Below, piece by piece: positions 11,428 to 41,388 of a stretch of 64,000 nucleotides of DNA. Position 1 is the first letter of the stretch. Every line of letters begins with the position of its first letter. Source of the stretch: a virus (Duplodnaviria > Caudoviricetes); IMG/VR virus record IMGVR_UViG_3300025389_001063; one strand, written 5' to 3'. Made by a program: the position numbers and the translations under genes. The notes beneath the pieces were generated by a model. It had not been told where the DNA came from and ran no database searches. It saw nothing but the letters and a program-made list of their open reading frames with translations.

Positions 11428-12312
11428 ATGAATTATTATGCTACATTAGGCGTAGAAAGAACTGCGTCACCCGAAGAAATTAAAGCAGCTTATCGTAAAT
11501 TAGCAATGAAACATCATCCTGATCGCGGCGGTGATGAAAAAATGTTTCAAGAAATTACACAAGCATATGAAATATTAAGCGACCCTTCTAAGAAATCTCA
11601 GTATGATATGGGTGGAATGAATAATAACCCCCAATGGCAACAATTTCATAGCGGACATCCATTTACTGGGGATCCTTTTGGAAATCCTTTTGGTGGTACA
11701 GGCGGTGGACATCCCTTTGAAGATATTTTTGCACAATTTGGATTTGGATTTCCGCATGGAAGACCTCAACCAAAAAATAATGATTTACAAATCAAAATAA
11801 AAGTTAGCCTTAGAGATAGTTTTCTTGGTAAATCTATGAATGTTAGTTACCCTTTACCTAGTGGTAAACAAGAGAATACAGAAATTAGAATCCCCCCTGG
11901 AGTAATTCCAGGTCAATCTATTAAATTAGGCGGACTTGGGGACGATAGTATACATGGTATTCCTAGAGGAGATCTTATTATTCATATCGAAGTCGATCGA
12001 GATAATAATTTTCATCGAGAAGATTTGTCATTAGTAACAAAAACAACTATCGATGTTTTTGATGCTATGCTAGGTTGCAAAAGAATAATAAAAAATATAG
12101 ACGATTCTGAAGTTGAAGTTACAATTAGACCAGGTACACAAAATGGTCAAAAATATTCTTGTAAAGGGCTGGGTTTTCCTAATATTAGATTTCCATCCGA
12201 TAGAGGAGATCTCGTCGTACAAGTTATAGTAACTACTCCAGTAATTACAGATACATCGTCAATAGAGAAAGTAAAAGAGATGGCAGAATATATCCGTAGA
12301 ACAAAAAAATAA
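11428..12312 (+). CDS. dnaJ: DnaJ/CbpA-type co-chaperone (J domain, G/F region, C-terminal domain; no zinc finger)
   Basis: NYYATLGV...KHHPDRGG (HPD motif), G/F-rich linker, GDLIIHI and GDLVVQV repeats. Confidence 0.9.
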   Translation: MNYYATLGVERTASPEEIKAAYRKLAMKHHPDRGGDEKMFQEITQAYEILSDPSKKSQYDMGGMNNNPQWQQFHSGHPFTGDPFGNPFGGTGGGHPFEDIFAQFGFGFPHGRPQPKNNDLQIKIKVSLRDSFLGKSMNVSYPLPSGKQENTEIRIPPGVIPGQSIKLGGLGDDSIHGIPRGDLIIHIEVDRDNNFHREDLSLVTKTTIDVFDAMLGCKRIIKNIDDSEVEVTIRPGTQNGQKYSCKGLGFPNIRFPSDRGDLVVQVIVTTPVITDTSSIEKVKEMAEYIRRTKK

Positions 12313-12315
12313 CTA

Positions 12316-12344
12316 TTGATAATGTTCAATATCTGCTTTATATT
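12316..12344 (+). promoter_or_regulatory. Sigma70-like promoter, leaderless arrangement
   Basis: TTGATA-N17-TATATT, then 6 nt to ATG 12351; no SD. Confidence 0.6.
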
Positions 12345-12350
12345 AATGAT

Positions 12351-12845
12351 ATGTTAGACCTTAAATACGAACCTTACCCACTGTTACATATGCCACTGGC
12401 AAAATATGAATTTGATCAAGACACAAAAGAACTTGAGAAATTAATGATCGAAACTATGAAAAAATATCGTGGTATCGGTCTTGCTGCTAGTCAAGTCGAT
12501 ATCCCATATCAAATGTTTGTAATGGGAACTGATTTAGTTGAAGGATTTATTGAACCAACAATATTCATTAATCCTTCTATTACTAAAGTTAGTGAAGAGA
12601 GAACTCTCGACAAAGAAGGATGTTTAAGTTTTCCAAATTTATGGCTAAAGGTTGAAAGACCTTCTTGGATTGAAGCAATATATCAAAGTGTCGACGGTAA
12701 ATGGAATGAGATTAGAGTTGAAGGATATATGGCTAAATGCTTTCAACATGAGTTTGATCATCTACACGGAGTATGCTATACTGATAGAGTAGGTAGATTG
12801 AAATTAGAAATGGCTATCAAAAAGATGCGAAAGGGTAAGAAATGA
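12351..12845 (+). CDS. def: Peptide deformylase
   Basis: GIGLAASQV, EGCLS and QHEFDHLHG: all three PDF motifs. Confidence 0.95.
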   Translation: MLDLKYEPYPLLHMPLAKYEFDQDTKELEKLMIETMKKYRGIGLAASQVDIPYQMFVMGTDLVEGFIEPTIFINPSITKVSEERTLDKEGCLSFPNLWLKVERPSWIEAIYQSVDGKWNEIRVEGYMAKCFQHEFDHLHGVCYTDRVGRLKLEMAIKKMRKGKK

Positions 12846-25434: not shown

Positions 25435-26250
25435 ATGTTAAAGAGAGAACCTAGATACCCAAACAGAACTTTAGCAATAAGTCCTACGCCAAGATATAAT
25501 TGGCGTCCGGATAAATCAGATTCAAGAGATTATATATTTGAAAAATTAAACACTATTCCGGCAACTTTGCCCCCTAGTGTTGACCTAAGATCTCATTGTC
25601 CACCTATTGTAGATCAAGGACAAGTTGGATCATGTACTGGTTGTGCTATTGCCGGTATTATTGGTTACTACGATAATACACATAATAAAAGCGGGATTGT
25701 TGTTAGTAGATTGTTTATCTATTATCAAGAACGCCTTTTAGAAGGTACTATTTATTATGATGCTGGTGCTTATATACGTGACGGTATTAAAGCATGTAAT
25801 CAATGGGGTGCTCCTCTAGAAACACTTTGGCCATATCTAGCAAATAAAGTAACTACTCGTCCTAGCACTGGAGCATATACTGATGCTGCTAAACGCAAAG
25901 CGGGTACTTATCAAAAAGTTACTACACAAGCGGCAGGTATTAAAGCCTCACTGAATCTTGGATTTCCTGTAGTGGTTGGATTTACTGTTTATGCAAGTTT
26001 TGAAGGTAATACAAATAATACAACAGGCATGATGCCTTATCCTAATACTTCTTCAGAACAAATATTAGGTGGACATGCTGTAGCAGTTGTAGGTTATGAT
26101 GATAACTTGAATGGTGGTAGATTTATTTGCCGTAATAGTTGGGGAACTAATTGGGGTGATCATGGTTACTTCTATATGCCTTACCAAGTTATTAACAATG
26201 CCAATATGAGTAGCGACTTCTGGGCAATCACTGGCGTAAGTAATCCATAA
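25435..26250 (+). CDS. Papain-family (C1A) cysteine peptidase
   Basis: VDLR...DQGQVGSCT (Gln/Cys), GGHAVAVVGYD (His), RNSWG (Asn). Confidence 0.9.
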   Translation: MLKREPRYPNRTLAISPTPRYNWRPDKSDSRDYIFEKLNTIPATLPPSVDLRSHCPPIVDQGQVGSCTGCAIAGIIGYYDNTHNKSGIVVSRLFIYYQERLLEGTIYYDAGAYIRDGIKACNQWGAPLETLWPYLANKVTTRPSTGAYTDAAKRKAGTYQKVTTQAAGIKASLNLGFPVVVGFTVYASFEGNTNNTTGMMPYPNTSSEQILGGHAVAVVGYDDNLNGGRFICRNSWGTNWGDHGYFYMPYQVINNANMSSDFWAITGVSNP

Positions 26251-26484: not shown

Positions 26485-26506
26485 ATAAATATCCTATAGA
26501 AGGATA
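26485..26506 (+). promoter_or_regulatory. Late promoter overlapping a short hairpin that covers the SD
   Basis: ATAAATA 26485-91; TATCCT(26490-95)/AGGATA(26501-06). Confidence 0.5.
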
Positions 26507-26511
26507 GAACC

Positions 26512-26835
26512 ATGAAAATTCTTGAACTTATGGAAGCAGTTACTCAAAGCGACTTCATGAGAGAAGATTGGCAAAAAGTCAATAAGAAAGATAAAACAGA
26601 CGGTATGAGTAAAAAAGCCGTTAAAGCCTATCGCCGTGAACATCCTGGCAGTAAACTAAAAACTGCTGTTACTACCAAACCAAGCAAATTGAAAAAAGGT
26701 TCTAAGGACGCTAAAAGACGCAAGAGTTTCTGTGCTAGAATGAGTGGCATGAAAAAGAAAAATGCTAGTGCTAAAACTAAGAGAGATCCAGACAGCCCAA
26801 TCAATAAGGCATTGCGTCGTTGGAACTGTGAGTAA
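26512..26835 (+). CDS. Basic Lys-rich protein, putative internal head protein
   Basis: MKILELME N-terminal motif; KRRKSFCARM...KALRRWNC is a type I recognise from T4-like cyanophage hypotheticals. Confidence 0.6.
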   Translation: MKILELMEAVTQSDFMREDWQKVNKKDKTDGMSKKAVKAYRREHPGSKLKTAVTTKPSKLKKGSKDAKRRKSFCARMSGMKKKNASAKTKRDPDSPINKALRRWNCE

Positions 26836-26837
26836 TT

Positions 26838-28871
26838 ATGTTTTTAAGAGAATTCTTTTATAGATCAAACCCAATTATTATTGAAGGTGGTAATGTACAA
26901 ATTGGCCCGCACAGTGCGGAAAGAATCAATTTGAAGAAAATTCCACGCAATCAAATTGTTCCGATTATTGACAATCTATTACATTCAGTCAATTCTGCTT
27001 TCCAATCAAAATTTAAGACTCCACTTTGGTCGCCACAACTACTACAGAAAAAAGAATTCCTCAGTGGATCGGCATTTCACTTTCTCAATCCAGGAATTCC
27101 AGATGAAAAATTTGTTCAACATAAACCTAGTGTTGGAGATATTGACACAATGGTTGATAAAAATAAAAGAGAACAAGTAGAACAATTTTTAAATTCAGTT
27201 ACAAACAAAAAGATTGGTCCTGCTACATTACTTGGCTTTAAACCTAATCCTGGAGGTGATCAATTTATTACATTATGGGAATTCAGTGAGCCACCAATCA
27301 AGATACAAATTGATTTAGAACTTGTAGAATTCCACGGTGCTGGTCCAAGTGAATGGTCAAAGTTTAGTCACTCTAGTGATTGGGCAGACCTCGAAGCAGG
27401 TGTTAAAGGAGTATTCCACAAATACTTATTAAGAGCATTTACTACAAATACTCTCAAAGATCGTCTCGTACAAATGAAAACAAAACTTAAACCAGTTAAG
27501 AGTACAGACGTTGCCTTTGCTGTTACTGGTGGTATGAGAGAAAAATATAAACCAGTTTTAGATGCTAATGGTAAACAAAAAGTTGTAGACGGGTTACCTG
27601 TATATACAGAAGTTCCAGCAAAAGACTCAACATATGTTAATTCAACAGAAGGCATGTTTGAATTAATATTTGGTAAACCACCGGTAGGAGGAGAAGAAAA
27701 ACTCCTCGGTTCATTTATAGGTGGATTACAATTAGCAAACAAATATCTTGATGATGAACATAAAAAGTTATTGCTAGATGGTTTTGTTAATACACTATTT
27801 GGACAAACTGCTCAAGAACTTTATAAAGGTGATCCAGAATCAGATCGTGCTGAAAAAGAAGTTGCTCTCAAAACTATGCTTGAAAAATTAGGCATGAAGA
27901 TGGACACAAATATACAGCAAATGGAAAAGTCTTTTTACAGTAATTATAAAATGGATGAAGAATTAGACGAAGAGGAAGTTGTTTCAAGTCGTCGTACAGG
28001 AATTAGCCATCTACAAGGTATGAAAGATTTAGAGTTTATTGAACTTATTAAGAAAATTAAAAACGAATATCAAGGTAAATTAAGCAACGTAAAGATGACT
28101 CTTAAAGTTGATGGTCTCGGTGCTCGCTTTGGTAAAGACGCAGAAGGTCGTCCATTTTTTGAAAGTTCAAGAAGCGGACCAATCTTTACAGCAGGTTCAT
28201 TTATATCACATGCTAAAAGCAGAGGATTTGAAGGTGAAAAACTTGCTCGTGCTGAAAAGTATGACGAAATTTATAACCTAGTCGTTAACAGTGACTTTGT
28301 TAAGAAGTTACCTAATGATATTAAAATTCATTGTGAGATACTTTATAATCCAATGGCAGAAGAAACAGAGAATGGCTTGAAGTTTGTCACAGTTTCTTAT
28401 GATAGAAAACTACTAGGCGAAGTAATGACTATTGTTCCATTCTACGCAGAAGTTGCTTCTACTGGACAAAAGTATTCTAAGAGTGAACAAATTAAAGACG
28501 AACTAATTAGATCTGGTAGTGGTAATGGTATTAAATTTGTTGATGACAGATTAATGTCAGACACTATCGATATTACTGGCGAAATTGATCCATTACTAAC
28601 AATGATCAACGATCGCTTTATTGCTAAACTTACATCAAGAACTAAAGCAGACGCTGAAGAAAAGTCGCAACTAAAGGCTATGGTTCAAAGTGTTAAGGAC
28701 AATTTGGCAGATTATATCTTTAGACATCCAAGCATTGCTGGTAAAGATAAATTGGGCAAAGACATTGAAGGTATTATACTTCATAGAGATAAAGAAGCCC
28801 CACTAAAGATCACTACTCCAGATTTTAAGCAAGCAATCGCAGCAAAGAAGAACCCAAATGTTGTTAAGTGA
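26838..28871 (+). CDS. Two-domain protein: Pol-beta-like nucleotidyltransferase plus RNA-ligase-like (KxDG) domain
   Basis: N half SGSAF...GDIDTMVD...IQIDLE; C half TLKVDG (motif I), HCEILY (III), EGIILH (IV), LKI (V); halves joined by acidic MDEELDEEE. Confidence 0.6.
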   Translation: MFLREFFYRSNPIIIEGGNVQIGPHSAERINLKKIPRNQIVPIIDNLLHSVNSAFQSKFKTPLWSPQLLQKKEFLSGSAFHFLNPGIPDEKFVQHKPSVGDIDTMVDKNKREQVEQFLNSVTNKKIGPATLLGFKPNPGGDQFITLWEFSEPPIKIQIDLELVEFHGAGPSEWSKFSHSSDWADLEAGVKGVFHKYLLRAFTTNTLKDRLVQMKTKLKPVKSTDVAFAVTGGMREKYKPVLDANGKQKVVDGLPVYTEVPAKDSTYVNSTEGMFELIFGKPPVGGEEKLLGSFIGGLQLANKYLDDEHKKLLLDGFVNTLFGQTAQELYKGDPESDRAEKEVALKTMLEKLGMKMDTNIQQMEKSFYSNYKMDEELDEEEVVSSRRTGISHLQGMKDLEFIELIKKIKNEYQGKLSNVKMTLKVDGLGARFGKDAEGRPFFESSRSGPIFTAGSFISHAKSRGFEGEKLARAEKYDEIYNLVVNSDFVKKLPNDIKIHCEILYNPMAEETENGLKFVTVSYDRKLLGEVMTIVPFYAEVASTGQKYSKSEQIKDELIRSGSGNGIKFVDDRLMSDTIDITGEIDPLLTMINDRFIAKLTSRTKADAEEKSQLKAMVQSVKDNLADYIFRHPSIAGKDKLGKDIEGIILHRDKEAPLKITTPDFKQAIAAKKNPNVVK

Positions 28872-29532
28872 ATTATTTGAAGCAAGCACAGAAGTTGCTA
28901 TTATATTTGGAAGGTTTAATCCTCCACACAAAGGTCATAAGGCTGCGTGGGAAATTGCTGCCCAATCACCAATATGGTATATAGGTACCAATAAGTCCAC
29001 CATTGGACCAAAAGATCCTTTGCCTTATGATGTTAAGATTAAAGCAATGCAAGTAATTTGGCCAGATATTAAAGGACACATTGTTGCTGAACAAAGTTGG
29101 CTAACTCTTTGCTCAAGAGTATTCGAAGAACACGGTGATGTTATTCTTAATGTTGTTACTGACGAAGAATATGTTTTTAAACTCATTGCACAATATAACG
29201 GTGTAGAAGGTAAACAACATGGATTTTATAAATTTACAACAATAAATCCAAAACCTAGTCCAAGAATAAGTTCTGCTACTGACCTAAGAGCCGCAGTTAC
29301 TAACGATAATCCAGATGCGTTTGCTAAGGCTGCTGGTGTTCCTGCTGATACATTAATTGCTGGTGTTCCATATTTTGAACTTGTAAAAAAATATATGACC
29401 CCAGACCCTAAAGTTAAAACAAAGAAAACAAAAGAAGAATGTGCCGGCGTTGGTATTGTAACAAAACAAAACTCTACAGCAGATGTTGGATCTGGAACTA
29501 TTAAAAAGAATATGAAGGCGTTTAAATTATGA
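28858..29532 (+). CDS. HIGH-motif cytidylyltransferase/NMNAT-like nucleotidyltransferase
   Basis: FGRFNPPHKGH, DPLPY, ISSATDLR. Confidence 0.8.
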   Translation: MLLSELFEASTEVAIIFGRFNPPHKGHKAAWEIAAQSPIWYIGTNKSTIGPKDPLPYDVKIKAMQVIWPDIKGHIVAEQSWLTLCSRVFEEHGDVILNVVTDEEYVFKLIAQYNGVEGKQHGFYKFTTINPKPSPRISSATDLRAAVTNDNPDAFAKAAGVPADTLIAGVPYFELVKKYMTPDPKVKTKKTKEECAGVGIVTKQNSTADVGSGTIKKNMKAFKL

Positions 29533-29732
29533 ACATTAAAGAACTTCAAAAATTAGCAGGTATTACATCTGAAGAAAAGACAGATGAAAATATTTCTACT
29601 GCTTATGCTGATAAACGCAAGAAAGAAAAAGAAGAAAACATATCACCAGGATCAGATGAATGGTTCAAACTCTGGTTCAAAAGAAAACCAGGTCTAGGCA
29701 TGCCCCCAGTATTTCGTGGAAGAAAAAAATGA
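29529..29732 (+). CDS. Small hypothetical protein
   Basis: MNIKELQKLAGI motif; coupled to both neighbours by ATGA overlaps. Confidence 0.6.
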   Translation: MNIKELQKLAGITSEEKTDENISTAYADKRKKEKEENISPGSDEWFKLWFKRKPGLGMPPVFRGRKK

Positions 29733-30856
29733 GATTAAGAGAAGTATTTGAAGATATACAAGGACCAGGAGTTACAACTGCTCCATTCTTAAAGGATGGA
29801 CCTCTTAAGGTTTCTAAACACTTTACAAGTCGTCTTAAAGAGAGAGATTTAGATCTAAAAACTGTTGCTCGTTTTATTAGCAAAGCAATTAAAAAGAATA
29901 AAGCAGAGATAGAAGCACTTCCAGTTGATACATCATTTATTCTAAAATCTAAAATAGGTTTAGGTGTTGCTATTGTTAAACAAGAAACTCCAGATGGAAT
30001 TGTATACTTGATTAATACAGCTCATCCACAATTTAGTGTTGGAGCAAATCAAGAAGTATTTTTAGGTGATAGTAAACTACTTGATAAGAAGACTCCAACT
30101 ATCGGAGAACTTGCTGAAAAATATCACACAAGTCTTATTGCTGTTGAACTTCAACTTAAAAAAGGCATCAAGGTTGAAATGGAACACACTAAGAAACACA
30201 GTGTGGCAAAAGAAATTGCTTTAGACCATTTGGGAGAAGATTTATATTATTATGAAAAATTAGCCAAAGTAGAAAAAAATGAGTCTTGTGGACCTAGTTG
30301 TACCTGTCCAAAATGTAAAGCAACAAATGAAGGTCAATTTAGAGCAGATGATGTTGAGGAATTCAAACCGAGTAAAAGTCAATTAGGCGATCTAAAATCC
30401 AAATATCTCCCAGATTGGGAAATGTTAGATCATAGAATTCTACAAGCAGATTATAATGCTAAAGATCATAGACATGCTGAAAAGTTTATTGAGAGAATCA
30501 ATAAAATTAGTGAAGAAATGGATCATTTTTGTGAAGTAACTCAAGATGTTGCTGAAGTTACAGTAAAGACTACAACATCAGATGTTAAGGGGTTAACACT
30601 TTTAGATTTCCAAATTGCCATGCGTATAGATAACTTGGCAGAGAAAATGGATATTGAACAGATCCGTTCAAAAGGTAATTTTGATGAAAACTTTGCGGAC
30701 GGAAAAGGTCCAGGTAGACCAGGAGATAGTGCTAGACACGGCATACCTAAAGGTGCTACAATAGCACAGTTAGAAAAGGCATCAAAGGCAAAAGGACGCA
30801 AAGGTCAATTGGCACGTTGGCAATTGAATATGCGTAGAGGTAAAAAGAAAGGCTAA
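29729..30856 (+). CDS. Multidomain protein including a pterin-4a-carbinolamine dehydratase-like domain
   Basis: Likely start MRLREVFE (ATGA overlap). LPDWE...F...I..ISEEMDHF.EV...V.V...T.DV.GLT.LDF.IA..ID is PCD-like; also GIKVEMEHT...EIALDHL.E...YY module and a basic C-terminal module. Confidence 0.6.
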   Translation: MRLREVFEDIQGPGVTTAPFLKDGPLKVSKHFTSRLKERDLDLKTVARFISKAIKKNKAEIEALPVDTSFILKSKIGLGVAIVKQETPDGIVYLINTAHPQFSVGANQEVFLGDSKLLDKKTPTIGELAEKYHTSLIAVELQLKKGIKVEMEHTKKHSVAKEIALDHLGEDLYYYEKLAKVEKNESCGPSCTCPKCKATNEGQFRADDVEEFKPSKSQLGDLKSKYLPDWEMLDHRILQADYNAKDHRHAEKFIERINKISEEMDHFCEVTQDVAEVTVKTTTSDVKGLTLLDFQIAMRIDNLAEKMDIEQIRSKGNFDENFADGKGPGRPGDSARHGIPKGATIAQLEKASKAKGRKGQLARWQLNMRRGKKKG

Positions 30857-30858
30857 AA

Positions 30859-31209
30859 ATGTATAACAAAGTTGATGATAGATCTGAAGAAATGTTTATT
30901 GGATGTGAATGTAATTCCCCGGCACATATTATTCGTGTTAGTTATTGGGACTGGGGATTAAAAGATTCTCCTGAATTTTATTTTGAACTCCAAAGCGATA
31001 TGCCTCATAGTTTCTTTACACGAGTAAAGAAGGCTTTTAATTATATATTCTTTGGTACTCGTTTAGATTGGCACGATGTTATTCCTAAAGCAGATGATCT
31101 TCGTAAACTCCAGATTCTTATTTCTAAATATTTAGATCGCTATGATCATTATGAGGCTCATTGTAAGATTGAATGGAAAAAGAAAAAGGAGTCAAATGAA
31201 ACTATTTGA
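30859..31209 (+). CDS. Hypothetical protein
   Basis: 116 aa; CECxxxxH near the N-terminus. Confidence 0.55.
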   Translation: MYNKVDDRSEEMFIGCECNSPAHIIRVSYWDWGLKDSPEFYFELQSDMPHSFFTRVKKAFNYIFFGTRLDWHDVIPKADDLRKLQILISKYLDRYDHYEAHCKIEWKKKKESNETI

Positions 31210-31738
31210 ACTTAATCAAAACATAGGGAAACATGTTCCTGAAATCTATGTCGACATGGATGGTGTACTTGCTGATTTCTTTGGGGAGTGGGCAAAATTA
31301 GATGGTGTAGATCATTATAAAGATATTGATAATCCAGAAGCAAAATTAGCTCTAGTTAGAGAACATCCAAACTATTGGATTAATCTTCCTGTATTACCAA
31401 ACGCAGGTAAATTAATGGGATTTATTAAAAAGAATTTTGGACACTATAATATTTGTTCAAGTCCACTTGCTGGTGATCCACAATGCGAACCACAAAAGAG
31501 ATTGTGGGTTAAGAAACATCTAGCAGGCTTTCCACCAGATCATGTAATCATTACAGAAAACAAAGCAGCATATGCTACACAAGCAGACGGATCACCAAAT
31601 ATTTTAATTGATGACTTTGGTAAAAATATTGCCGCCTGGAATAACGCAGGCGGCATTGGTATCAAACATAAAGATCATAAATTAGATAGAACTTTAAATG
31701 AATTAGCAAATTATATAAATGCTAGATCTCAAGCATAA
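31196..31738 (+). CDS. HAD-family 5'(3')-deoxyribonucleotidase-like phosphatase
   Basis: YVDMDGVLADF (DxDxV), SSP, K, LIDDFGKN; start MKLFEL with AAGGAG. Confidence 0.85.
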   Translation: MKLFELNQNIGKHVPEIYVDMDGVLADFFGEWAKLDGVDHYKDIDNPEAKLALVREHPNYWINLPVLPNAGKLMGFIKKNFGHYNICSSPLAGDPQCEPQKRLWVKKHLAGFPPDHVIITENKAAYATQADGSPNILIDDFGKNIAAWNNAGGIGIKHKDHKLDRTLNELANYINARSQA

Positions 31739-31956
31739 TCTGGATCAATATTATCTGGATCGATTTCAATAATGATTTTTCCGTCTTCGTCGTAAATCTT
31801 TACTTTATCTGCTTCTAGTTTCTTTGCAAATTCTAGTGCTTCTTCGTAAACTAAGAAAGAGAACAATTCAAGTTCTACTTCTTCACCTTCATGAAATTTA
31901 AAAGATTTCATCTTAAATGGGTACGTGTGATATCCCCAATCGATTTTTTTGGTCAT
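31729..31956 (-). CDS. Small hypothetical protein (paralog of 31984-32172)
   Basis: EEALEFAKKLEADKVKIYDEDGKIIIEI; AGGAG SD. Confidence 0.6.
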   Translation of the reverse strand: MTKKIDWGYHTYPFKMKSFKFHEGEEVELELFSFLVYEEALEFAKKLEADKVKIYDEDGKIIIEIDPDNIDPDYA

Positions 31957-31983
31957 TTATTTTCTCCTATAATTATTATATAT

Positions 31984-32172
31984 TTAAGCGTAAGTGGTAG
32001 GTGAGTCTGGAATTATTTCGTGTATTAATTCGCCAATCTCATTGTAAATTTTAACGGAATATGCTTCTACCGTTCTTGCAAAAGCAATAGCATCTTGTTC
32101 TAATTCAAAGAAAAAATGTTTAGATTCTACAATACCATTATTCCAATTAAATGTTGTAGTCTTGAATTTCAT
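31984..32172 (-). CDS. Small hypothetical protein (paralog of 31729-31956)
   Basis: QDAIAFARTVEAYSVKIYNEIGELIHEI; both proteins end in YA. Confidence 0.6.
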   Translation of the reverse strand: MKFKTTTFNWNNGIVESKHFFFELEQDAIAFARTVEAYSVKIYNEIGELIHEIIPDSPTTYA

Positions 32173-32174
32173 TG

Positions 32175-33233
32175 TTACTCTCCGTTAAAATATTTTACCC
32201 AAATATCGCGGGTGTTATTAGTATAATTAGTCAAATTCTTCTGATTTATTCCCACATTCTGCTGTGGGAAATTATATGCTTTTATAATTTGTTCAGCAAT
32301 GTTTTTACTGTCAACTGGATTAGCATTAAACTCTTTACAACTCCACGGTATTTCATTAGATCCTACAAGAGGAACACCTTGACTTATAAGATCAGCACCA
32401 ACAATATTAAATGTTTCACTGAAACTAACTTGTAAGCCAATATCCATTGTAGCACATAATTCTAGAAATTGTTCTCTAGGGCGCCACTCATGTGATATCA
32501 TTTCATGCCCACTATCTATAAGTTGAATAAACAGTCCACGTAAATTATGTAATACAGCATCCCCCTTCATTTCAATACGTCCAGCATTAATATGAAATCT
32601 TAATTTTTTATTAAGAATTTTACAAGAATCAAGTGCTCCAAATGCTTGTAATAAGTGATTTTTTAGTGGACGAACTGCACCAAAACAACAAATGTCTAGA
32701 TGTTTTTTATCTTTGTTAAATTCTTTAGTTACATAGTCTTGAGGATAGTAGTTTGGCATGTAAACTATTTTTTCTTTAATTTTATCTTTATCCCATCCCA
32801 TTTTAATTTTAGCATAAGTTTTAATTTCGTGCATCATACGTGGGGCATTAATTCCTAATATGATATTTGGAAATGTAAAATAATCTCCAATCCAATTCAT
32901 TGCGATTCCTTCGCCTGCTAGGAAAGGCATTTCACTGTGTAGTCGTATAATCCAAGTAATTTTAGGATGCAACTTTGTTAAAATATAAAATTTACTAGGA
33001 ACAACCCAAAGTGCTTCAATAATAACATGAGTTGGTCTATGCTTTGTGACTAACTTATCTATACAGTTATTATCTATTGCTACTTCCATCTCAGATTCTA
33101 TTCCAGAATCTTTTAACATTTGATCCATAAAACTGGCACTATTATAAAGTCCAGTACTTAATCCTTTTGCATTGTGTTTGACAAGGTCGTAGTCTTCTCT
33201 TCTCTTCAAAATGAATAGAACACGTTTTTTCAT
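32175..33233 (-). CDS. GT-B fold glycosyltransferase (GT4-like)
   Basis: FGAVRPLKNH and VSFSETFNIVGAD...GVPLVGS motifs; late-type ATAAATA on the minus strand at 33262-33268. Confidence 0.7.
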   Translation of the reverse strand: MKKRVLFILKRREDYDLVKHNAKGLSTGLYNSASFMDQMLKDSGIESEMEVAIDNNCIDKLVTKHRPTHVIIEALWVVPSKFYILTKLHPKITWIIRLHSEMPFLAGEGIAMNWIGDYFTFPNIILGINAPRMMHEIKTYAKIKMGWDKDKIKEKIVYMPNYYPQDYVTKEFNKDKKHLDICCFGAVRPLKNHLLQAFGALDSCKILNKKLRFHINAGRIEMKGDAVLHNLRGLFIQLIDSGHEMISHEWRPREQFLELCATMDIGLQVSFSETFNIVGADLISQGVPLVGSNEIPWSCKEFNANPVDSKNIAEQIIKAYNFPQQNVGINQKNLTNYTNNTRDIWVKYFNGE

Positions 33234-33298
33234 AAAACTCCCGTCTGTAAATCTTTCCGTCTATTTATCGACACATATATCTTTGGTGAGAAAAGAAC

Positions 33299-33305
33299 AT
33301 AAATA
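33299..33305 (+). promoter_or_regulatory. T4-late-like promoter, divergent from the GT4 promoter
   Basis: ATAAATA upstream of ATG 33328. Confidence 0.55.
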
Positions 33306-33327
33306 TTAGTAAAGAAAGGGCAGCAAC

Positions 33328-33597
33328 ATGAAAATAAAAGAACTTATCGAAGCAGCCACAGCAGGTGCTACATCCTCAGGAAGTATAGCAACAGTTGTAA
33401 GCCCACAATTAAGCCCAGGTAAAGCACGTGGCAAAACATCTTATACAGGATCACCAGGAAAAAGTGGAACAAAGGCTCCACCACAACCTAAGGTAGTACA
33501 ACCTAAATCAAAACTAGGTACTACTAAAAATGCTCTCGATATGAAGGCAAACATCTTTGGTCAACCCAAAGAAAGCGTAACAGTTATAAAGAGATAA
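33328..33597 (+). CDS. Basic low-complexity protein, putative internal head protein
   Basis: MKIKELIE|AATAGATSSGSIA. Confidence 0.6.
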   Translation: MKIKELIEAATAGATSSGSIATVVSPQLSPGKARGKTSYTGSPGKSGTKAPPQPKVVQPKSKLGTTKNALDMKANIFGQPKESVTVIKR

Positions 33598-33599
33598 TC

Positions 33600-34316
33600 A
33601 TGCTGCTACGCGATTTCGTTGAACAACATGTTTCTGATGCCGTTGTGTTCCACGATGAACTTAATCCTGTCTTTTGGACTAATAATAAAATGAAGCCTAT
33701 GATTCGCTATAAACTTTTACAAGTTGCTATGGATTTTGTCAAGTTCATAGGTGTTAAAGAATTAGGTCTCACAGATGTTATTATGACTGGATCAAACGCC
33801 AGTTACAATTATACAAAGCATAGTGATGTTGATCTACACCTTGTAGTTAAAATTCCCGATAGCGATGTATTCAAGCAATTATATGACTCCAAGAAGGGTC
33901 TTTGGAACGAACAACATGACGTTAAAATTAAAGGGTATGACGTTGAAGTTTATGTTCAAGACGCCGATGAGCCTCATATAAGTTCAGGCATGTACAGTAT
34001 ACTTAACGACGAGTGGATTAAAGAGCCAAAGCCCGTTAAGCCTAAAATTAATGATATGAGTGTTGAACACAAATATGAAGAAATTCATGCTGCTATTGAA
34101 GAAGCAGTTCATGATGGTGATAAAGCCAAGTTAGAAAAACTCAAAGACGATATTAAAAAGATGCGTCAAAGCGGTCTCCAAAAAGAAGGAGAATTTAGCG
34201 TTGAGAATTTGGTTTTTAAGATGTTGCGTAATCTAGGTGACATGGATATGTTAGTCAATGTTATAGCAAGGTTGCGTGACAAAGAACTCAGTATAGAACA
34301 CGTTCACGAGGAGTAA
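33600..34316 (+). CDS. Pol-beta superfamily nucleotidyltransferase
   Basis: TGSNASYNYTKHSDVDLH (GS...DxD) and VEVYV; MLLRDFVE N-terminus. Confidence 0.75.
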   Translation: MLLRDFVEQHVSDAVVFHDELNPVFWTNNKMKPMIRYKLLQVAMDFVKFIGVKELGLTDVIMTGSNASYNYTKHSDVDLHLVVKIPDSDVFKQLYDSKKGLWNEQHDVKIKGYDVEVYVQDADEPHISSGMYSILNDEWIKEPKPVKPKINDMSVEHKYEEIHAAIEEAVHDGDKAKLEKLKDDIKKMRQSGLQKEGEFSVENLVFKMLRNLGDMDMLVNVIARLRDKELSIEHVHEE

Positions 34317-34321
34317 TCACA

Positions 34322-34612
34322 ATGACATATGAATTTGATACACATCAGTCCACAAATAAAATTAATTGGGCTGATTTCGATCTCTTATGGGAAAATTATT
34401 ATACCGTCAGAGCCATACCTCGTGGAAATCTCAAGAAAAAAGCCTTATCCTATATCGACGAACATGAGTATAAAAACGGCTGGAGTAAGCATACACAACG
34501 TAAACTTGTGGTAAAATCAAAGAAGATCAGAAAAAGTTCCAAAAAGGCTGATCGTATGTTTGACTCGCAGTTAACCGATATGGTCAACTGGTACATCCAC
34601 TTTTACCAGTAA
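34322..34612 (+). CDS. Hypothetical protein
   Basis: 96 aa; GAGGAG SD. Confidence 0.55.
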   Translation: MTYEFDTHQSTNKINWADFDLLWENYYTVRAIPRGNLKKKALSYIDEHEYKNGWSKHTQRKLVVKSKKIRKSSKKADRMFDSQLTDMVNWYIHFYQ

Positions 34613-34614
34613 GG

Positions 34615-34647
34615 ATAAATATTAGTAAATTATAAGGATTTACTAAT
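34615..34647 (+). promoter_or_regulatory. Late promoter followed by a 10-bp hairpin overlapping the SD and start codon
   Basis: ATAAATA 34615-21; ATTAGTAAAT(34621-30)/ATTTACTAAT(34638-47). Confidence 0.55.
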
Positions 34648-36328
34648 GAACCTTTCTGACCTGTTATCTGAATCTGAAATTCAGCAACTAGACGAGTTAA
34701 AAGCAGGAAAGTATGCTCATATAGCGAGTTTATTAGGTGCTCTTGCTGCTCAACACGGTGGCAAGGCAGCTGATGCTGCTACTGTTGGTTGGAAGCAACA
34801 AGCACCACATGCTTTAGCAACATTAGCAACTTATGCCGATACTAAAAAACTAGGTGCCCTACCTGCTACATTAAGTTCTGACGAACTTAATAGAGATGAA
34901 GACGAATTAAGACGTAGAGAAAAATATAGAAAAATTGGTAGATTAGTTTCTCCTAAAGATGAAAGTTTAGACGAGGGTGTAGTTGCCCGTAGAGGCAATA
35001 AAGTAATTCTTGGTTCTCTAGAATTACAACTTTATCCAGATCATGTTTTTTATGTAGTTAATGGTGGGAAAGAAGCAGATCTAAGCATTTATAAGGACGG
35101 AGCGTTTAAGCCTCCTCGCAATAATGAAATCTATTTGAAGGATGCTGGTAAGCATGGCGTTCCAGACGTATTCTCAAAGGTAATTGCTAAATTCTTTGCT
35201 ACTCAAAGCATAGATGATGTTGTTAATGATTTAGAAACTCTATATAGAAATCATGTTAAGAAAGAAGATTTAGACGAAGGAAAGTATAATGAACTTTTCC
35301 TTAGAGGATTAGTTGGTGCTATTATGGCAGGTGGAATTTCTTATGGTATCGATTATGCCAAAGAGAAAACTGCTGATCTTGATAAAGCAGGATTACACGC
35401 ACTTTATAAAAGTATCGATCCACACGAATATAAACAACTTACACAAAAAATACCACTCAAAGACAAAAAAGGTCTTAATTCTATATTAAGCAAATTGAAG
35501 GAACATGCCATGAAAATGGAAGATCTAGATGAAGGTTGGGTATCTATTAGTGATCCTAAAACTGGTAAAACAAACACTTATGGTAAAAAGCCAAAAGAGA
35601 AACCAGAAGTCGGTGAACCAGGAACTAATTGGCAGAAACATTCTAAACAAGGTGGTAGTAAGATATCACTTACTAAACCTATTGAAGAAGGTAATAAAGA
35701 AAATAAAGCAAAGAAGAAAGAAGTTATTCCACCAAAAAGTCGTCCTAAAGATAAGATGAGTTCATTTGATCCACGTAAAGATCTTAAAATGAGAGAAAGT
35801 GAATACGACGGTGAAGGATCTTTCTTAAAGAATGAATTACAGACTATTGCTAGAGTTGCTACTCACCTTGCTCGCGATTTAGACAATGACGAGAATGTTC
35901 CAACATGGGTAATATCAAAGATATCACAAAGCAAAGGTATGCTTGTTGGTGCTATGGATTATATGATTAGCAAACATGAACGTGGTATTCAACCAATGGA
36001 TGAAGAAGAAAAGGATTGGTCAAGTCGTTATAGAGTAGGTTGTACTCTTGTTGATCGTAATTCACCTGCTGCTTCTAACAGAAATAAAAAGATCTTTAAG
36101 AATGTTTGGGTAAGAGCAGAAGACGAATTTGATGCTAAAAAAGTTGCTCAAATCTATTATCGCAAAAAAGGATACAGTGTAATTAATTGCGAAATTACAA
36201 CTCCAAATGAATCAATGAGTGAAGAAAAGCAAAGACTTGATGCTAAATGCTGGAAAGGTTATCGCAAGGCTGGAACTAAAATGAAGGGCGGCGTCAGAGT
36301 TAATAATTGTGTTAAGAGTGGAAAATAA
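34646..36328 (+). CDS. Modular protein / putative polyprotein of internal head peptides
   Basis: Unrelated 40-100 aa modules separated by LDE|G, IEE|G, MRE|S, MDE|E and MSE|E. Confidence 0.55.
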   Translation: MNLSDLLSESEIQQLDELKAGKYAHIASLLGALAAQHGGKAADAATVGWKQQAPHALATLATYADTKKLGALPATLSSDELNRDEDELRRREKYRKIGRLVSPKDESLDEGVVARRGNKVILGSLELQLYPDHVFYVVNGGKEADLSIYKDGAFKPPRNNEIYLKDAGKHGVPDVFSKVIAKFFATQSIDDVVNDLETLYRNHVKKEDLDEGKYNELFLRGLVGAIMAGGISYGIDYAKEKTADLDKAGLHALYKSIDPHEYKQLTQKIPLKDKKGLNSILSKLKEHAMKMEDLDEGWVSISDPKTGKTNTYGKKPKEKPEVGEPGTNWQKHSKQGGSKISLTKPIEEGNKENKAKKKEVIPPKSRPKDKMSSFDPRKDLKMRESEYDGEGSFLKNELQTIARVATHLARDLDNDENVPTWVISKISQSKGMLVGAMDYMISKHERGIQPMDEEEKDWSSRYRVGCTLVDRNSPAASNRNKKIFKNVWVRAEDEFDAKKVAQIYYRKKGYSVINCEITTPNESMSEEKQRLDAKCWKGYRKAGTKMKGGVRVNNCVKSGK

Positions 36329-36564
36329 TGGCAAACCTAACAGTACAAACACCTTACAATCCAAATAGACCAACTAACCCAGAAGATCCAAATGGTATTG
36401 CTCATGCTGAAAGTGCTAATCCCGCTGATACACAGAAGGATCGTGCCGCAGCAAAGAAGTCTTGGGCACAATATGTCCAAGATTGGAAAGTAGCACAACA
36501 AACAGGTGATAGTTCAGGTCCAGCACAGTTTCCAACAGGAACAGTAATTTATCCAAACGATTGA
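36328..36564 (+). CDS. Hypothetical protein
   Basis: 78 aa; overlaps the upstream stop. Confidence 0.55.
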   Translation: MANLTVQTPYNPNRPTNPEDPNGIAHAESANPADTQKDRAAAKKSWAQYVQDWKVAQQTGDSSGPAQFPTGTVIYPND

Positions 36565-36569
36565 TTAAA

Positions 36570-36576
36570 ATAAATA
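36570..36576 (+). promoter_or_regulatory. T4-late-like promoter
   Basis: ATAAATA, AAGGA SD, ATG 36596. Confidence 0.5.
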
Positions 36577-36595
36577 CACTAACAAGGATTTTATT

Positions 36596-36946
36596 ATGAA
36601 AGTAGACGAATTAATCAAAACCATCCTTAACATGGTAGACAAACAGGAAAATCCTGAAGGTGTTGTTAAGACCGATGCTGATACAAAGCGTCTAAAGCCA
36701 GTAGAAATTAAGAATCAAAAAGGTGCTGAACAGGCAGCCGAAGCAGGCGATCACAATGCTCAAAAGAAATGCGATGGTCAGCAAATAATGACTTTTCCGC
36801 TACAACAAAAACACGAACTATTAAAGAAAACAGTTGATGTACCTAATCAATTTGATAAACAAGAAAATGATGAATTAAACCGTATTAAGAAAATGGCAGG
36901 TCTAACAATTATACATCACGATGATTCAACACCATTTGATGATTAA
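36596..36946 (+). CDS. Hypothetical protein
   Basis: MKVDELIK N-terminus; [12 protein letters not shown] resembles ELQKLAGI of gene 29529. Confidence 0.6.
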
Positions 36947-36954
36947 GGAGTCTA

Positions 36955-39900
36955 GTGGTGGCTGTAACAGAGAAACTATTCACAAGTAGAGCAAAAGGTG
37001 TAGATGCTGATCTTTATGTAGGAGAAAAAGGTCGCTTATTCTACAACGAACCAGATGGTACAGGCATTGCTCCTATATTAAGATATAGTGATGGTGCTAC
37101 TGTTGGCGGTGTTCCCCTATTAGGTGGCACTGTAATTGTAAGTAATAATCCACCTAACAATCCAAATACTGGTGAGTTGTGGTTTGACAACCTCGATGGT
37201 AGATTATATGTTTTTTACGACAATACTTGGGTTGATACAAATCCTGCTAGTCAATATACTTTACTACCTGCTACAAATTCAAGTCTTGGTGGTGTTATAG
37301 TTGGTGGAAATATACAAGTCGATGTTAATGGAACAATTAGTGTAGACTTTACCGGACTTGCTACAGAAACTTATGTTAATACTGCTATTACAAATGCCTT
37401 CGAACAATATAATGATTTAGGTAACTTATCAGTTGGTGGTACAGATTTACAAACTATCTATGGTAGCGTTAATAATGCCGACATTGCTATAACACCTAGT
37501 GGTTCAGGATTATTACAAACTTCTGGTATAAGAGTAATTAATCCCCTACTACAGTCTCCACAAGTAGGTTCAATTGTATCGGCACAAAGTAGTATTGTTG
37601 CTAATATCGCTAACATTTATCTAGCAGCCATTTTAGATCACGGTGATGATGCTGATTTAGTTCCCCCAATTTATGGATTAACAAATGGTATCACTGGTGG
37701 TCCTTATACAGTTTATCAATTAGTTACTGCTCCTGTTATTACCCTACAAATTGGAGATATCATAGCAGGTCCTGCTATACCTGTTGGTAGCACTATTATC
37801 TATGTAGGTTCTGATACATACGCTGATATTATAATCACCAGCAGTAATTTCGCACCAGGGGCTACTTTACCTTATGCTGATCCTACTAACACTACTGTTC
37901 CAACTACAGTTTCTCGTGCTGTGGTTAATGCTGGATTAAGCATAGTTACACACCCTGATGTAGATATCACTCTAAATGCCGGTACTGGTGGACATATTGT
38001 TCCTCACAGTGACATTGTTCCTTTTACTACTAGTACATGGAATTTAGGAACAAGTGCTCGTAGATTTAAGGAAGTATGGTTAGGTGCTGGCACAATCTAT
38101 ATACAAGATGAAACGCTAGGAAACGACCAAGCAATCGGTGCTAGAGATGGATTAGTTTATATCGCAGGTGGTGCTGGACTTAAGGTTGGCGAGTTTACAT
38201 TAATAGATAATGAAATTAAAATTACAGATCCTACTAGAGATATTATAGTAGGTTCCATTACTGCTACTGGTAATGTTACATTTAATCGTCCATTACAGGT
38301 AGCAAACAATTCAGGTATCATAACATTCCAAGTTGAACGAGGCGGTAAGACTGATATTTTCTCTCCAGGCCTACCTTTGGGACAATCTGCTTTAAGTATT
38401 AATGCTACTATAGGTCGTAATGAATATGGATTAGTTTCTCCTCTCGGCGGCAGTCTTATTCATGCTACTGCTAAAGAAGGCTCTATTGGTTTTATAACTA
38501 TAGATAGTTTTTCTGATGTGGCTGGAGGAGGTGGCACCGCATTTGTTGGTCGTAGATTCCGCGGAACTGTTAGTAGTCCGGCAGCAGTTCAGCAGGGCGA
38601 CACTATGGCCGTATTTGCTACTAATGGGTATAACGGAACTGATATCAGAACAGGTGTAAGTAGTGCTCGAATAACATTCAAAGCGGCTGAAAACTTTAAT
38701 TCAACTTCACAATCAGCCTATACAGAATTTAGAAATCAAGTTGTTGGCACTGGTGTGGACGCTGTTTCTGCTATAATCGACGCAAATGGTTTAACTTTAC
38801 CTAGTGGTGCTTTAGGTGGAATTGGAAATGTTGGAATTACATTCCGTAATAACACAAGACAAATAACCGCACCAACTGTTATACCAAGTCAAACAGGATA
38901 TGCTGGATATTACTTAAGAACCGACGGCGTTGCTGGTGGTACAGATATTAATGGTAATACTACTTCGGGTACATTAAGTTGGCAACCTATTCCACAAGCG
39001 ATTGTTTATAAAGGTGCTTGGGATGCTAATGCTAACTCACCTAGTTTAAGTACTACAACCCCTACAGGATTACAAGCAGGTTGGGAATATTCAATTTCGA
39101 CTACTGGTACACAAGATATCGGTAGTGGTTCGCAAACATATAGTGCTGGTGGATTTGTTATCTTTAACGGATCAACATGGGAATATATACCACCAGTAAG
39201 TGGCGTTGTTAGTATAGAATTTGATAGTGGGTCAGCATATACCGGAAGTGTACAAGTACAAAGTTCAGATATTGTTAGCACTATAGATACTGGAGCATTG
39301 CCAATCAATAAATTAGCATCAAATTCAGTAACTGTTACAGCCGGTACTGGAATGAGCGGTGGTGGTACTGTTTCTCTAGGTGGATCGATTACATTAACTA
39401 ATGCTGGTGTTACAGGTATAACTGGTGGTACTGGTATTAGTGTTAATACAAGCACTGGATCTGTTACAGTTACTAACTCAGGTGTTACTAGCATATCTGC
39501 TACTAATCATATTTCAGTAAATAACAGCACAGGTTCTGTAACTGTTACATCAGATGCTACAAGCAATTCAACAGCAAATACCATAGCATTAAGAAATGGT
39601 GTAGGTGGGATTGACGCACAAGACTTTACTGCTACTCATGATGTAAGTGTATTAACTGACCATGGTGCCTTTAACTACGGAACTTTAAGTTATAGTGATA
39701 CTGGTATTATGGCTGATTTTAGTTATAGTACCATCCTCTATAATCAAGTAGTTGTACAAAATACTAATAGTGCTAATAGTGCTAGTGCCAATTATATTGT
39801 AAGTAACGACCAAGGAACAGCAAATACCTATTACGGTGAGTTAGGCATGAACTCCAGTACCTTTAGCGGTAGTGGTAGTCTTAATTTACCAAATGCTGTT

Positions 39901-41388
39901 TATCTTAACAGTGTATCAAGTGATTTAGTATTAGGTACGACAGGAACTTTACATTTTAATATTAATGGTACTGATGCTGCTTATATCAATAGTTCAGGTG
40001 TTGCTACATTTGCTAATACTATTCAAGGAACTATATCAAGCCTAAGTAATCATACTACAACTGATTTAGCAGAAGGTACTAACAAGTATTATACAGATTA
40101 TAGAGCCCGTCATGCTATCAGTGCTGGTGCTGGTATTAGTTACGATAATTCAACTGGTATTATTAGCAGCAATATTACTGTTGGGCCAACTGGTCCTCAA
40201 GGTCCTACTGGTCCAACTGGTGCTCCTAGTAATGTAACTGGTCCCACAGGATGGACTGGACCACAAGGTGCTGCTGGTACAAATGGAACCAATGGAGCCA
40301 CTGGACCTACAGGATGGACTGGACCACAAGGTGCTGCTGGTACAAATGGAACCAATGGAGCCACTGGACCTACAGGATGGACAGGACCACAAGGTGCTGC
40401 CGGCACAAATGGAACTAATGGAGCCACAGGACCTACTGGATGGACTGGACCTCAAGGTACACAGGGAAATGTTGGACCAACTGGTCCTATTGGTTGGACT
40501 GGACCACAAGGTGCTGCTGGTACAAATGGAACCAATGGAGCCACTGGACCTACAGGATGGACAGGACCTCAAGGCATACAAGGCGTAACTGGTCCCACAG
40601 GATGGACTGGACCACAAGGTGCTGCGTCAACAGTAACTGGTCCTACTGGATGGACTGGTCCTACTGGATGGACTGGACCACAAGGTGCTGCGTCAACAGT
40701 AACTGGTCCTACTGGATGGACTGGTCCTACTGGAGCAACTGGTCCTACTGGTGCTACTTATGTATTACCAACTGCTGGTGTTGGATCTGGAGGTACATTA
40801 GGTGGTGTTAAAGTTGATGGCACAAGTATTACTATTTCAAGTGGTGTTATAAGTGCTACAAGTAATGGTATAGGTGGTAATCAATTAGTATATGTATTAA
40901 ATTCTCAACAAACTATCGGAAATGCTAAAAATACATTATTAAGTTTATTTGGGTTAACTAACGGCGTTGTATTGGCCTCAAATACTCGCTATCAATATGA
41001 AATATTGTTTAATGCTCAATGTAACAAGGCTGGAGTATTAAGTTATGCTTTAGCACTAAGTGGTGGTGCTGTAGTAGCACAACATAACTACAATGTATTA
41101 TCTAACAAAACTACAACTATAGATACCTATACTGCCGGTGTTACTATGATGAGTTTGAACGCAACTGGTGCTACAATTACTACAGCACAAACAGTAGCCG
41201 ACACCGCAACATTTACTCACACTATAATACAAGGGACTATTGATGTAACTACTGGCGGTAATGTTAATTTTATGGTAAGTCAAGATCAAAATACTCCAGT
41301 AACTTGGACTATAAATGCCGGGTCTTATATCAAATTATTACCGTTAGGTGCTATTGGTGCTAACACAGTTGATGGTACTTGGTCATAA
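36955..41388 (+). CDS. Long tail fibre with a collagen-like (Gly-X-Y) segment
   Basis: 1477 aa; fibre-type N-terminus; VTSITAGTGI-type stalk repeats; about 190 aa of Gly-X-Y; C-terminal beta domain. Confidence 0.8.
40258..40740 (+). repeat. Collagen-coding tandem repeats (63-bp and 66-bp units)
   Basis: 63-bp unit ([21 protein letters not shown]) at 40258, 40321, 40384 and 40501; 66-bp unit ([20 protein letters not shown]) at 40609 and 40675. Confidence 0.9.

Follow-up and report, generated by a model that had tools for sequence, protein, structure and literature searches.

Why should ten unrelated proteins, encoded side by side in one viral genome, all begin in the same way? The question is raised by an array of genes at positions 26512-36946 of a 64,000-nucleotide stretch of viral DNA from the IMG/VR record IMGVR_UViG_3300025389_001063; this whole stretch is called the window below. 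A preliminary description had listed ten similar N-termini in the array and had read them as capsid-targeting sequences of the kind known from phage T4, marking a set of proteins that would be packed in the head and enter the host along with the DNA. All ten N-termini are present where they had been placed, on the plus strand, with the pattern M-x-[LIV]-x-[ED]-[LFV]. The shared leader is a real feature of these genes. As to its function, comparisons among related sequences make it fairly likely that it is a T4-type capsid-targeting and processing leader at work in a distant clade of jumbo phages.

The window is part of a 107,488-bp viral contig (35% G+C; CheckV completeness, 28%). We assign this contig, as a fragment, to an uncultured jumbo phage of the wider T4 superfamily, because its family-B DNA polymerase shares 47-51% identity with the polymerases of two jumbo myoviruses, Sinorhizobium phage Phosso and Agrobacterium phage Atu_ph07, and because of its gene content, which includes a clamp loader, a ClpB-like AAA+ protein, DnaJ, and several tail-fibre-like proteins. 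The phage is described as marine and uncultured. A megablast search with the array region against 50,697 phage records gave no match.

The leader is concentrated in the array: it heads 10 of the 16 genes between 26512 and 36946, whereas a single gene has it among the 115 or so on the rest of the contig (Fisher p = 2.9e-10). Among 2450 genes of this and related contigs, the strict motif stands at the head of 7.4% of the proteins and after 0.51% of the internal Met residues, a 14-fold difference. The tagged proteins are mutually unrelated, with different Pfam and PHROG content or none, yet they have the leader in common. Since the Leu residues at its conserved positions are encoded variously, by TTA, CTA, CTT, and CTG, the conservation lies at the protein level. 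A hydrophobic-x-E site is found at residues 3-5 in eight of the ten leaders; six have a second such site at residues 6-9, and the 677-residue protein discussed below has one at residue 16. The genes singled out earlier as untagged controls, at 30859, 34322, and 36328 and on the minus strand at 31729-33233, do lack the leader. The sole other gene with the motif on the contig lies about 23.5 kb before position 1 of the window and encodes a protein of about 70 residues that begins MNLFELSTGE; its start is an internal ATG with a good ribosome-binding site, and it has no other annotation.

The tagged genes had also been placed behind late-type promoters. This is so for four of them, with the motif directly upstream, and the other six are coupled downstream. 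The motif ATAAATAT occupies positions 26485-26492, 33299-33306, and 34615-34622, which are 27, 29, and 31 nt upstream of the genes starting at 26512, 33328, and 34646, and the form ATAAATA occupies 36570-36576, 26 nt upstream of the gene at 36596, all on the plus strand. On the whole contig, 12 of the 15 plus-strand copies of the motif sit 20-40 nt before a start codon (p = 6e-13), and the minus strand holds a single copy. The motif is also found upstream of tail-fibre genes, and the array is predicted to be expressed late, jointly with the structural genes. The leader is not general to late genes, because the eight other genes behind a full ATAAATAT copy, including tail-fibre-like genes, all lack it.

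The leader and its modules in related phages

The gene at 26838-28871 (plus strand) encodes a protein of 677 residues that starts MFLREFFY. Its leader takes up residues 1-16 and ends in IIE, ahead of a conserved GGN. Among 106 metagenomic homologues, the leader varies from 8 to 36 residues (median, 16) before an invariant GGN; the P3 position of the predicted cut site is L in 67, I in 32, V in 5, and M in 2 (99 with L or I), and all homologues but one (105) have E at P1. Leaderless homologues in Stenotrophomonas phage Ps15, Xanthomonas phage X1, and the metagenomic sequence P0061 start M-GGN exactly at the predicted cut site, and in Ps15 a stop codon lies five codons upstream of the leaderless gene. 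In an AlphaFold model of the 677-residue protein (mean pLDDT, 87), residues 1-10 score below 50 and residues 11-20 about 55, forming a short detached helix only. Judged from these sequences and this model, the leader lies outside the folded domain and is dispensable for the fold.

Fold searches matched the N-terminal domain of this protein to DNA polymerase beta and its C-terminal domain to ATP-dependent RNA/DNA ligases (Naegleria and archaeal RNA ligases, T4 Rnl1, and DNA ligase IV). A Pol-beta-like nucleotidyltransferase joined to a ligase is a LigD-like combination. Many relatives have an NMNAT/FAD-synthetase-like domain fused to the protein of this family. In the Stenotrophomonas and Xanthomonas phages, the protein is split into three genes that stand beside queuosine/7-deazaguanine genes. 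An IMG/VR search with the 677-residue protein alone returned no related loci; about 80 were retrieved with an alignment of the family.

One close relative (L011) has the same array, with an orthologue of the 677-residue protein that is 84-88% identical, and it keeps the leader on all eight shared orthologues, in one case as a variant. Two of the orthologues differ by a module. The gene at 29729-30856 (plus strand; 375 residues; leader MRLREVFE) encodes an extra N-terminal domain, DUF5661, a Pterin_4a-like domain, and a basic C-terminal module. Its start is at 29729 and not at that of the longer open reading frame (ORF) from 29660, and its ATG overlaps the stop codon of the preceding gene (ATGA). 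The L011 orthologue lacks about 105 residues and keeps MRLREVFE, and the window copy has a leader-like remnant, QEVFLGD (residues 108-114), at the other edge of the extra domain. The gene at 34646-36328 (plus strand; 560 residues; leader MNLSDLLSE) encodes a chain of modules with no family assignment, with internal junctions that read L-D-E-G (Glu at 110, 211, and 296) and I-E-E-G (Glu at 348). In its L011 orthologue, MNFSDLLNE runs straight into GVVARRGN, which in the window protein follows SLDE (residue 110). The L011 breakpoints coincide with leader-like L-x-E sites.

The same arrangement recurs more widely. Across the roughly 80 related IMG/VR loci, the modules of the array occur as solo tagged genes or inside proteins of 1000-2135 residues, nearly all of which have a single N-terminal leader. 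The ATAGATS block that characterizes the family of an 89-residue array protein is directly preceded by hydrophobic-x-E in 10 of the 11 distinct forms that have it N-terminally; where the block is internal or the form extended, all five distinct forms have (I/L)-x-E there. Leader-bearing and leaderless members are known in each of the NMNAT-like, NT5C, and NTP_transf_2 families, and the gene set differs strongly between relatives. Single-linkage clustering of the tagged proteins put 348 of them into one cluster through their shared modules, and a per-module analysis was used instead. Across these alignments the leader proves to be a portable add-on, and evolution handles leader and modules as separate units.

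The resemblance to T4 that the preliminary description had pointed out is closer in the clade than in the array. The consensus of 265 distinct leaders from about 80 related contigs is M-[RK]-[LIA]-x-E-[LF]-[FIL]-x-E, and one of the commonest forms, MRAKEFIAE, contains the EFIAE of the T4 capsid-targeting sequence (CTS), MKTYQEFIAE (PMC8442874).

Where the leader could act

In T4, the cuts of the prohead protease gp21 fall after L/I-x-E, and one at ITE-6 shortens Alt by six residues (PMC5694885, PMC9026906). Of 10 large related fragments with the leader-bearing 677-residue family, 4 encode a protease of this type (Peptidase_S77); 4.35 would be expected if every genome had one, as given by the summed completeness of the ten fragments (each 30-62% complete). 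On a 180-kb related contig (G004; L107-L108, 34118-52498), at least five tagged genes, among them one for a DUF6321 protein, lie directly beside a portal-core-protease-scaffold-major capsid protein module, in which the portal and the major head protein were confirmed by PHROGs, and three further genes there begin MRA-x-E. Tagged genes also adjoin head modules on two other contigs (G001 and G005). The product of one of the tagged genes of G004, which starts MLLCELFD and ends in an endolysin/chitinase-like domain, may be a packaged cell-wall hydrolase.

A link to virions comes from Campylobacter T4-like phages, which have a homologue of the N-terminal domain of the 677-residue protein (31% identity, E = 7e-33). 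In Campylobacter phage vB_CcoM-IBB_35 this is gene 1-56, whose product starts MKLSELMFILE followed by GGN. It is one of 38 proteins detected by electrospray ionization tandem mass spectrometry in purified virions, with 17% coverage, and gp21 is on the same list (PMC3322345 Table S2). The leader is found on two genes only of contig 1 of this phage, too few for an enrichment test among its virion proteins.

These observations can be assembled into a simple scheme. The array genes would be transcribed late, and each product would bear an acidic-hydrophobic leader of 8-16 residues, by which the precursor would dock into the scaffolding core while the prohead assembles. A gp21-type prohead protease would then cut after Glu at hydrophobic-x-Glu, taking off the leader and separating fused modules. 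The mature proteins would stay in the DNA-filled head and would most likely exit with the DNA at infection. The idea of a capsid cargo put forward in the preliminary description is strengthened by the portability of the leader, the (L/I)-x-E boundaries, the T4-like consensus, the protease and the head-adjacent tagged genes of the relatives, and one homologue in virions; core docking, cleavage, head location, and ejection are steps that we infer for this phage. Its capsid probably encloses enzymes as well as small basic proteins. Besides the small basic proteins, the predicted cargo would probably comprise two nucleotidyltransferases, one of them the Pol-beta-like enzyme joined to a ligase, together with an NMNAT-like enzyme and a deoxyribonucleotidase; going by the assigned families, the chemistry of nucleotides and of nucleic-acid ends dominates this set. 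The cargo could plausibly serve repair or counter-defence immediately on entry.

Several observations weigh against this interpretation. Searches of the 107-kb contig (28% complete) for the gp21 protease (PF03420) and for gp23 (PF07068) found neither, and because the contig is without a gp21-type protease gene, the link to the protease rests on the relatives. The proteome of IBB_35 does not separate head from tail and includes no N-terminal peptide of the homologue (PMC3322345), and gene 1-56 adjoins tail-fibre genes, as the array of the window does. The leaders of the array are one residue too short for the T4 sequence in the register E-hydrophobic-hydrophobic-E. A second Glu site is missing from three of them (29529, 31196, and 36596), and position 5 is Asp in two; in T4, processing was reported to be blocked when Asp takes the cleavage position (PMC9026906). 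The bodies of the proteins do not help either: (L/I)-x-E is rarer in tagged than in untagged proteins (8.3 versus 10.7 per 1000 residues), and L-D-E-G is not significantly enriched in the bodies of the tagged ones. We have dropped the idea of a general excess of protease sites in tagged proteins, whose (L/I)-x-E frequency is the lower of the two, and because there is no such global excess, the argument from junctions rests on the aligned boundaries of a few families only.

How far could other explanations account for the leader? It could direct proteins into the virion and be processed there, but without injection, the proteins being parts of the core or scaffold, DNA-condensing fillers, or enzymes of genome or tail-fibre assembly that are later degraded or retained. 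We regard this as unlikely, even though it fits a number of facts. The T4 core proteins gp21, gp22, gp67, and gp68 have the same kind of N-terminus and are later degraded (PMC9026906), the array lies between tail-fibre genes just as the IBB_35 homologue lies beside such genes, the ligase domain resembles T4 Rnl1, which is annotated as also promoting tail-fibre attachment in T4, and several members are small and basic. It sits less well with folded enzymes that have no obvious role in assembly (NMNAT-like, NT5C, and NTP_transf_2), and those leader-bearing proteins of T4 that persist through maturation, namely Alt and the internal proteins, are ejected (PMC9026906). A gene set that varies between relatives also suits accessory or effector genes better than core parts of assembly.

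Less probable still is that the leader is read outside the prohead, by the co-located ClpB-like AAA+ protein with DnaJ or by an enzyme that modifies multiple substrates. Of 83 related sources, 65 have a ClpB-like gene within 10 kb of the 677-family gene, 51 have DnaJ there, and 36 have peptide deformylase, so the ClpB-like/DnaJ pair is syntenic with the array in most relatives, which counts against a reading by the prohead; a role of these proteins in folding or unfolding the cargo is possible. A cut after position 5 would moreover leave Leu or Phe, which are bacterial N-degron residues, at the start of 9 of the 10 proteins. The synteny may be mere conservation of gene order within one clade, however, and such machinery would leave unexplained the (L/I)-x-E junctions of modules, the leaderless homologues that begin at P1', the match to T4, the tagged genes in a head operon, and the detection of the IBB_35 homologue in virions. 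As to a modifying enzyme, the radical-SAM genes near some homologues are of the QueE type and also stand beside leaderless homologues. It is very improbable that the leader has no function at the protein level and is a by-product, arising either when cassettes were shuffled by recombination at gene starts that form short repeats or when the first codons were selected for the initiation of translation. Module insertions are indeed flanked by leader-like repeats (MRLREVFE/QEVFLGD and SDLLSE/ESLDEG), and AAA- or TTA-rich starts are common in an AT-rich genome. But the conserved Leu positions use several synonymous codons, the same amino-acid pattern holds across contigs with a G+C content of 35-41% and between proteins that are 35-60% identical, the leader is absent from other late and highly expressed structural genes, and the pattern is kept at internal junctions, where no initiation takes place.

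Taking the T4-type targeting and processing leader as the preferred explanation, a broader proposal can be made tentatively, with somewhat less than even confidence: an entire clade of aquatic T4-superfamily and jumbo phages would use one address-and-cut pattern, made of the leader and the (L/I)-x-E junctions, and would load its modules either solo or in a giant polyprotein; the cargo of this phage, a LigD-like Pol-beta nucleotidyltransferase/ligase with nucleotide enzymes, would be delivered ready-made against host defences. As a further twist, a cut at position 5 that exposes Leu or Phe N-degrons may make the injected proteins short-lived. If the proposal is true, the injected proteome of uncultured phages, e.g., of marine and freshwater jumbo phages without proteomics, could be predicted from sequence alone. 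This would matter because proteins delivered by a phage are the first to meet host defences, and here the Pol-beta-like nucleotidyltransferase/ligase, the NMNAT-like enzyme, the deoxyribonucleotidase, and the MNT-like nucleotidyltransferase would be candidates for early counter-defence or repair. The leader could also be put to practical use, as a natural tag with which foreign proteins are packaged in the heads of phages other than T4.

The genes of the array and their surroundings

The array opens at 26512-26835 with a gene for a protein of 107 residues (pI 10.4), a basic DUF6321 module behind the leader MKILELME, which has predicted cut sites at ILE5 and LME8. Elsewhere this module is fused within larger tagged proteins. 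The leader is not part of the DUF6321 domain, because the cyanophage DUF6321 homologues, encoded between gp16 and gp17, have none. The gene for the 677-residue protein follows, and then, at 28858-29532, one for an NMNAT/cytidylyltransferase-like protein of 224 residues with the leader MLLSELFE before its nucleotide-binding motif; its homologues are leaderless in phages Ps15 and X1 and fused to the 677-residue family in relatives. The gene at 29529-29732 encodes a basic protein of 67 residues with no family assignment, whose N-terminus is MNIKELQKLAGI, with the start MNIKELQK. It is a weaker member of the set, as its motif overlaps the family-specific block E-L-x-K-L-A-G-I. These genes, like all other tagged genes of the array, are on the plus strand.

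Beyond the 375-residue protein, the array is interrupted. An untagged plus-strand gene at 30859-31209 (116 residues), which is lineage-specific, and an untagged minus-strand cassette at 31729-33233, which encodes a protein of 352 residues and two small proteins that are paralogues of each other, are both absent from L011 and have been inserted recently. Between them, at 31196-31738, is a gene for an NT5C-type 5'(3')-deoxyribonucleotidase of 180 residues with the leader MKLFEL (MKLFELNQ), placed about 15 residues before the HAD motif DMDGV. Its start at 31196 is an internal ATG of the ORF from 31142 and has the best ribosome-binding site; homologues without the tag in three related loci (L009, L041, and L091) start MKKPEVYLDMDGV.

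After the cassette, the gene at 33328-33597 encodes the 89-residue member of the ATAGATS family (pI 10.4, otherwise without family assignment), with the leader MKIKELIE directly before the conserved ATAGATS module. The next, at 33600-34316, encodes an NTP_transf_2 nucleotidyltransferase of 238 residues with the leader MLLRDFVE, from a family that has solo tagged, solo untagged, and internal forms, two internal copies coming after PLKE and TLDE. The conserved plus-strand gene at 34322-34612 (96 residues) is untagged both here and in L011. Another untagged plus-strand gene, at 36328-36564 (78 residues), follows the gene for the chain of modules, and the array closes at 36596-36946 with an acidic protein of 116 residues with the leader MKVDEL (MKVDELIK). 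This last protein has no homologues, which makes it a weaker member too; L011 has a different tagged gene (MRAREF) in its place. Among the small tagged proteins, three are strongly basic, with pI values of 9.6-10.4. Sequence searches of the PDB with three cargo proteins were uninformative.

Two short C-terminal segments, encoded at 36200-36328 and 29430-29532, recur at the C termini of giant tagged proteins on other contigs. These are the Cys-bounded basic peptide that ends the 560-residue protein (C-W-K-G-Y ... N-C-V-K) and the last 32 residues or so of the NMNAT-like protein. They may represent a second, C-terminal module, by analogy with T4 Alt, which also has a C-terminal propeptide.

The array as a whole lies between tail-fibre genes. 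Upstream of it, at 11428-15109, are genes for DnaJ, peptide deformylase, and a ClpB-like double-AAA+ protein. Several of the fibre-like proteins encoded upstream (at 20055 and 22514) share a conserved N-terminal domain of 50 residues. A gene for a papain-family (Peptidase_C1) cysteine protease stands amid the tail-fibre and cargo genes, at 25435-26250; none of 82 related sources yielded a homologue of it. Directly downstream, at 36955-41388, a tail-fibre protein of 1477 residues has long collagen-like G-x-x repeats.

Comparison with known leaders and packaged proteins

A literature search found no description of such a leader system outside the relatives of T4, and no paper linking the term capsid targeting sequence with cyanophages, jumbo phages, metagenomes, or Pelagibacter. 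The closest known system is that of T4. In the T4 record, Alt begins MELITELFDE, gp24 MAKINELLRE, gp21 MNEPQLLIE, gp22 MLKEQLIAE, and gp67 MEGLIE. The first 10 residues of IPIII are enough for encapsidation, and the T-even phages carry diverse proteins behind CTS-like leaders (PMC5694885, PMC9026906, PMC3012670). As in T4, where IPI-III have the CTS and Alt and gp24 have related propeptides, the leader studied here is a short N-terminal segment (about 6-19 residues) common to unrelated proteins, with an acidic-hydrophobic pattern and a cut-site Glu behind L/I-x, and its genes are late. The cargo combines small basic proteins with enzyme and differs between relatives in both cases, the small basic proteins of the array (pI 9.6-10.4) resemble the T4 internal proteins, and the clade consensus has the EF(I/L)xE of MKTYQEFIAE (PMC8442874, PMC9026906, PMC5694885). 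The preliminary description had set the array apart from the T4 internal proteins by its full enzymes. Tagged enzymes are indeed present, but they are no departure from T4, because T4 already packages Alt (682 residues) behind such a propeptide (PMC5694885). The differences lie elsewhere. Here the carrier is a distant jumbo myovirus, the leaders reach at least 16 residues, and the local motif falls short of that of T4 by one residue. A single array, known from its sequence alone, holds ten or more tagged genes, most of them for enzymes, and modules are freely split and fused, in proteins of up to 2135 residues, with the same site at the traceable junctions.

The giant phages phiKZ, 201phi2-1, and SPN3US also load many proteins into their heads, including enzymes (there, a virion RNA polymerase). 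The propeptides of their ejection and inner-body proteins are cut after the Glu of a three-residue motif by a protease related to gp21 (PMC5694885, PMC10052503). In these phages the motif is S/A/G-x-E or A-x-E, and the propeptides mostly exceed 100 residues, with no short common leader, whereas in the array of the window P3 is L or I and the leader is short and common to all.

A last comparison is with the polyvalent proteins of phages and conjugative elements (Iyer et al. 2017, PMC5512222), which, in the passages considered here, are large multidomain proteins with several effector-like enzyme domains, predicted to be packaged into the head, delivered with the DNA, and processed. The relatives of our phage resemble them in fusing modules into multidomain proteins of 1000-2135 residues. 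Membership in this class is not supported for the proteins of the window, in which we detected none of the hallmark domains named in those passages (zincin-like metallopeptidase, ART, methylase-helicase, and PBECR). There, processing is ascribed to built-in peptidases and not to sites for a prohead protease (PMC5512222); in the window, by contrast with such multidomain proteins, most modules stand as genes of their own, each headed by a leader. Genes that split and fuse at protease sites could nonetheless link the paradigm of the T4 internal proteins to the polyvalent proteins of other phages.

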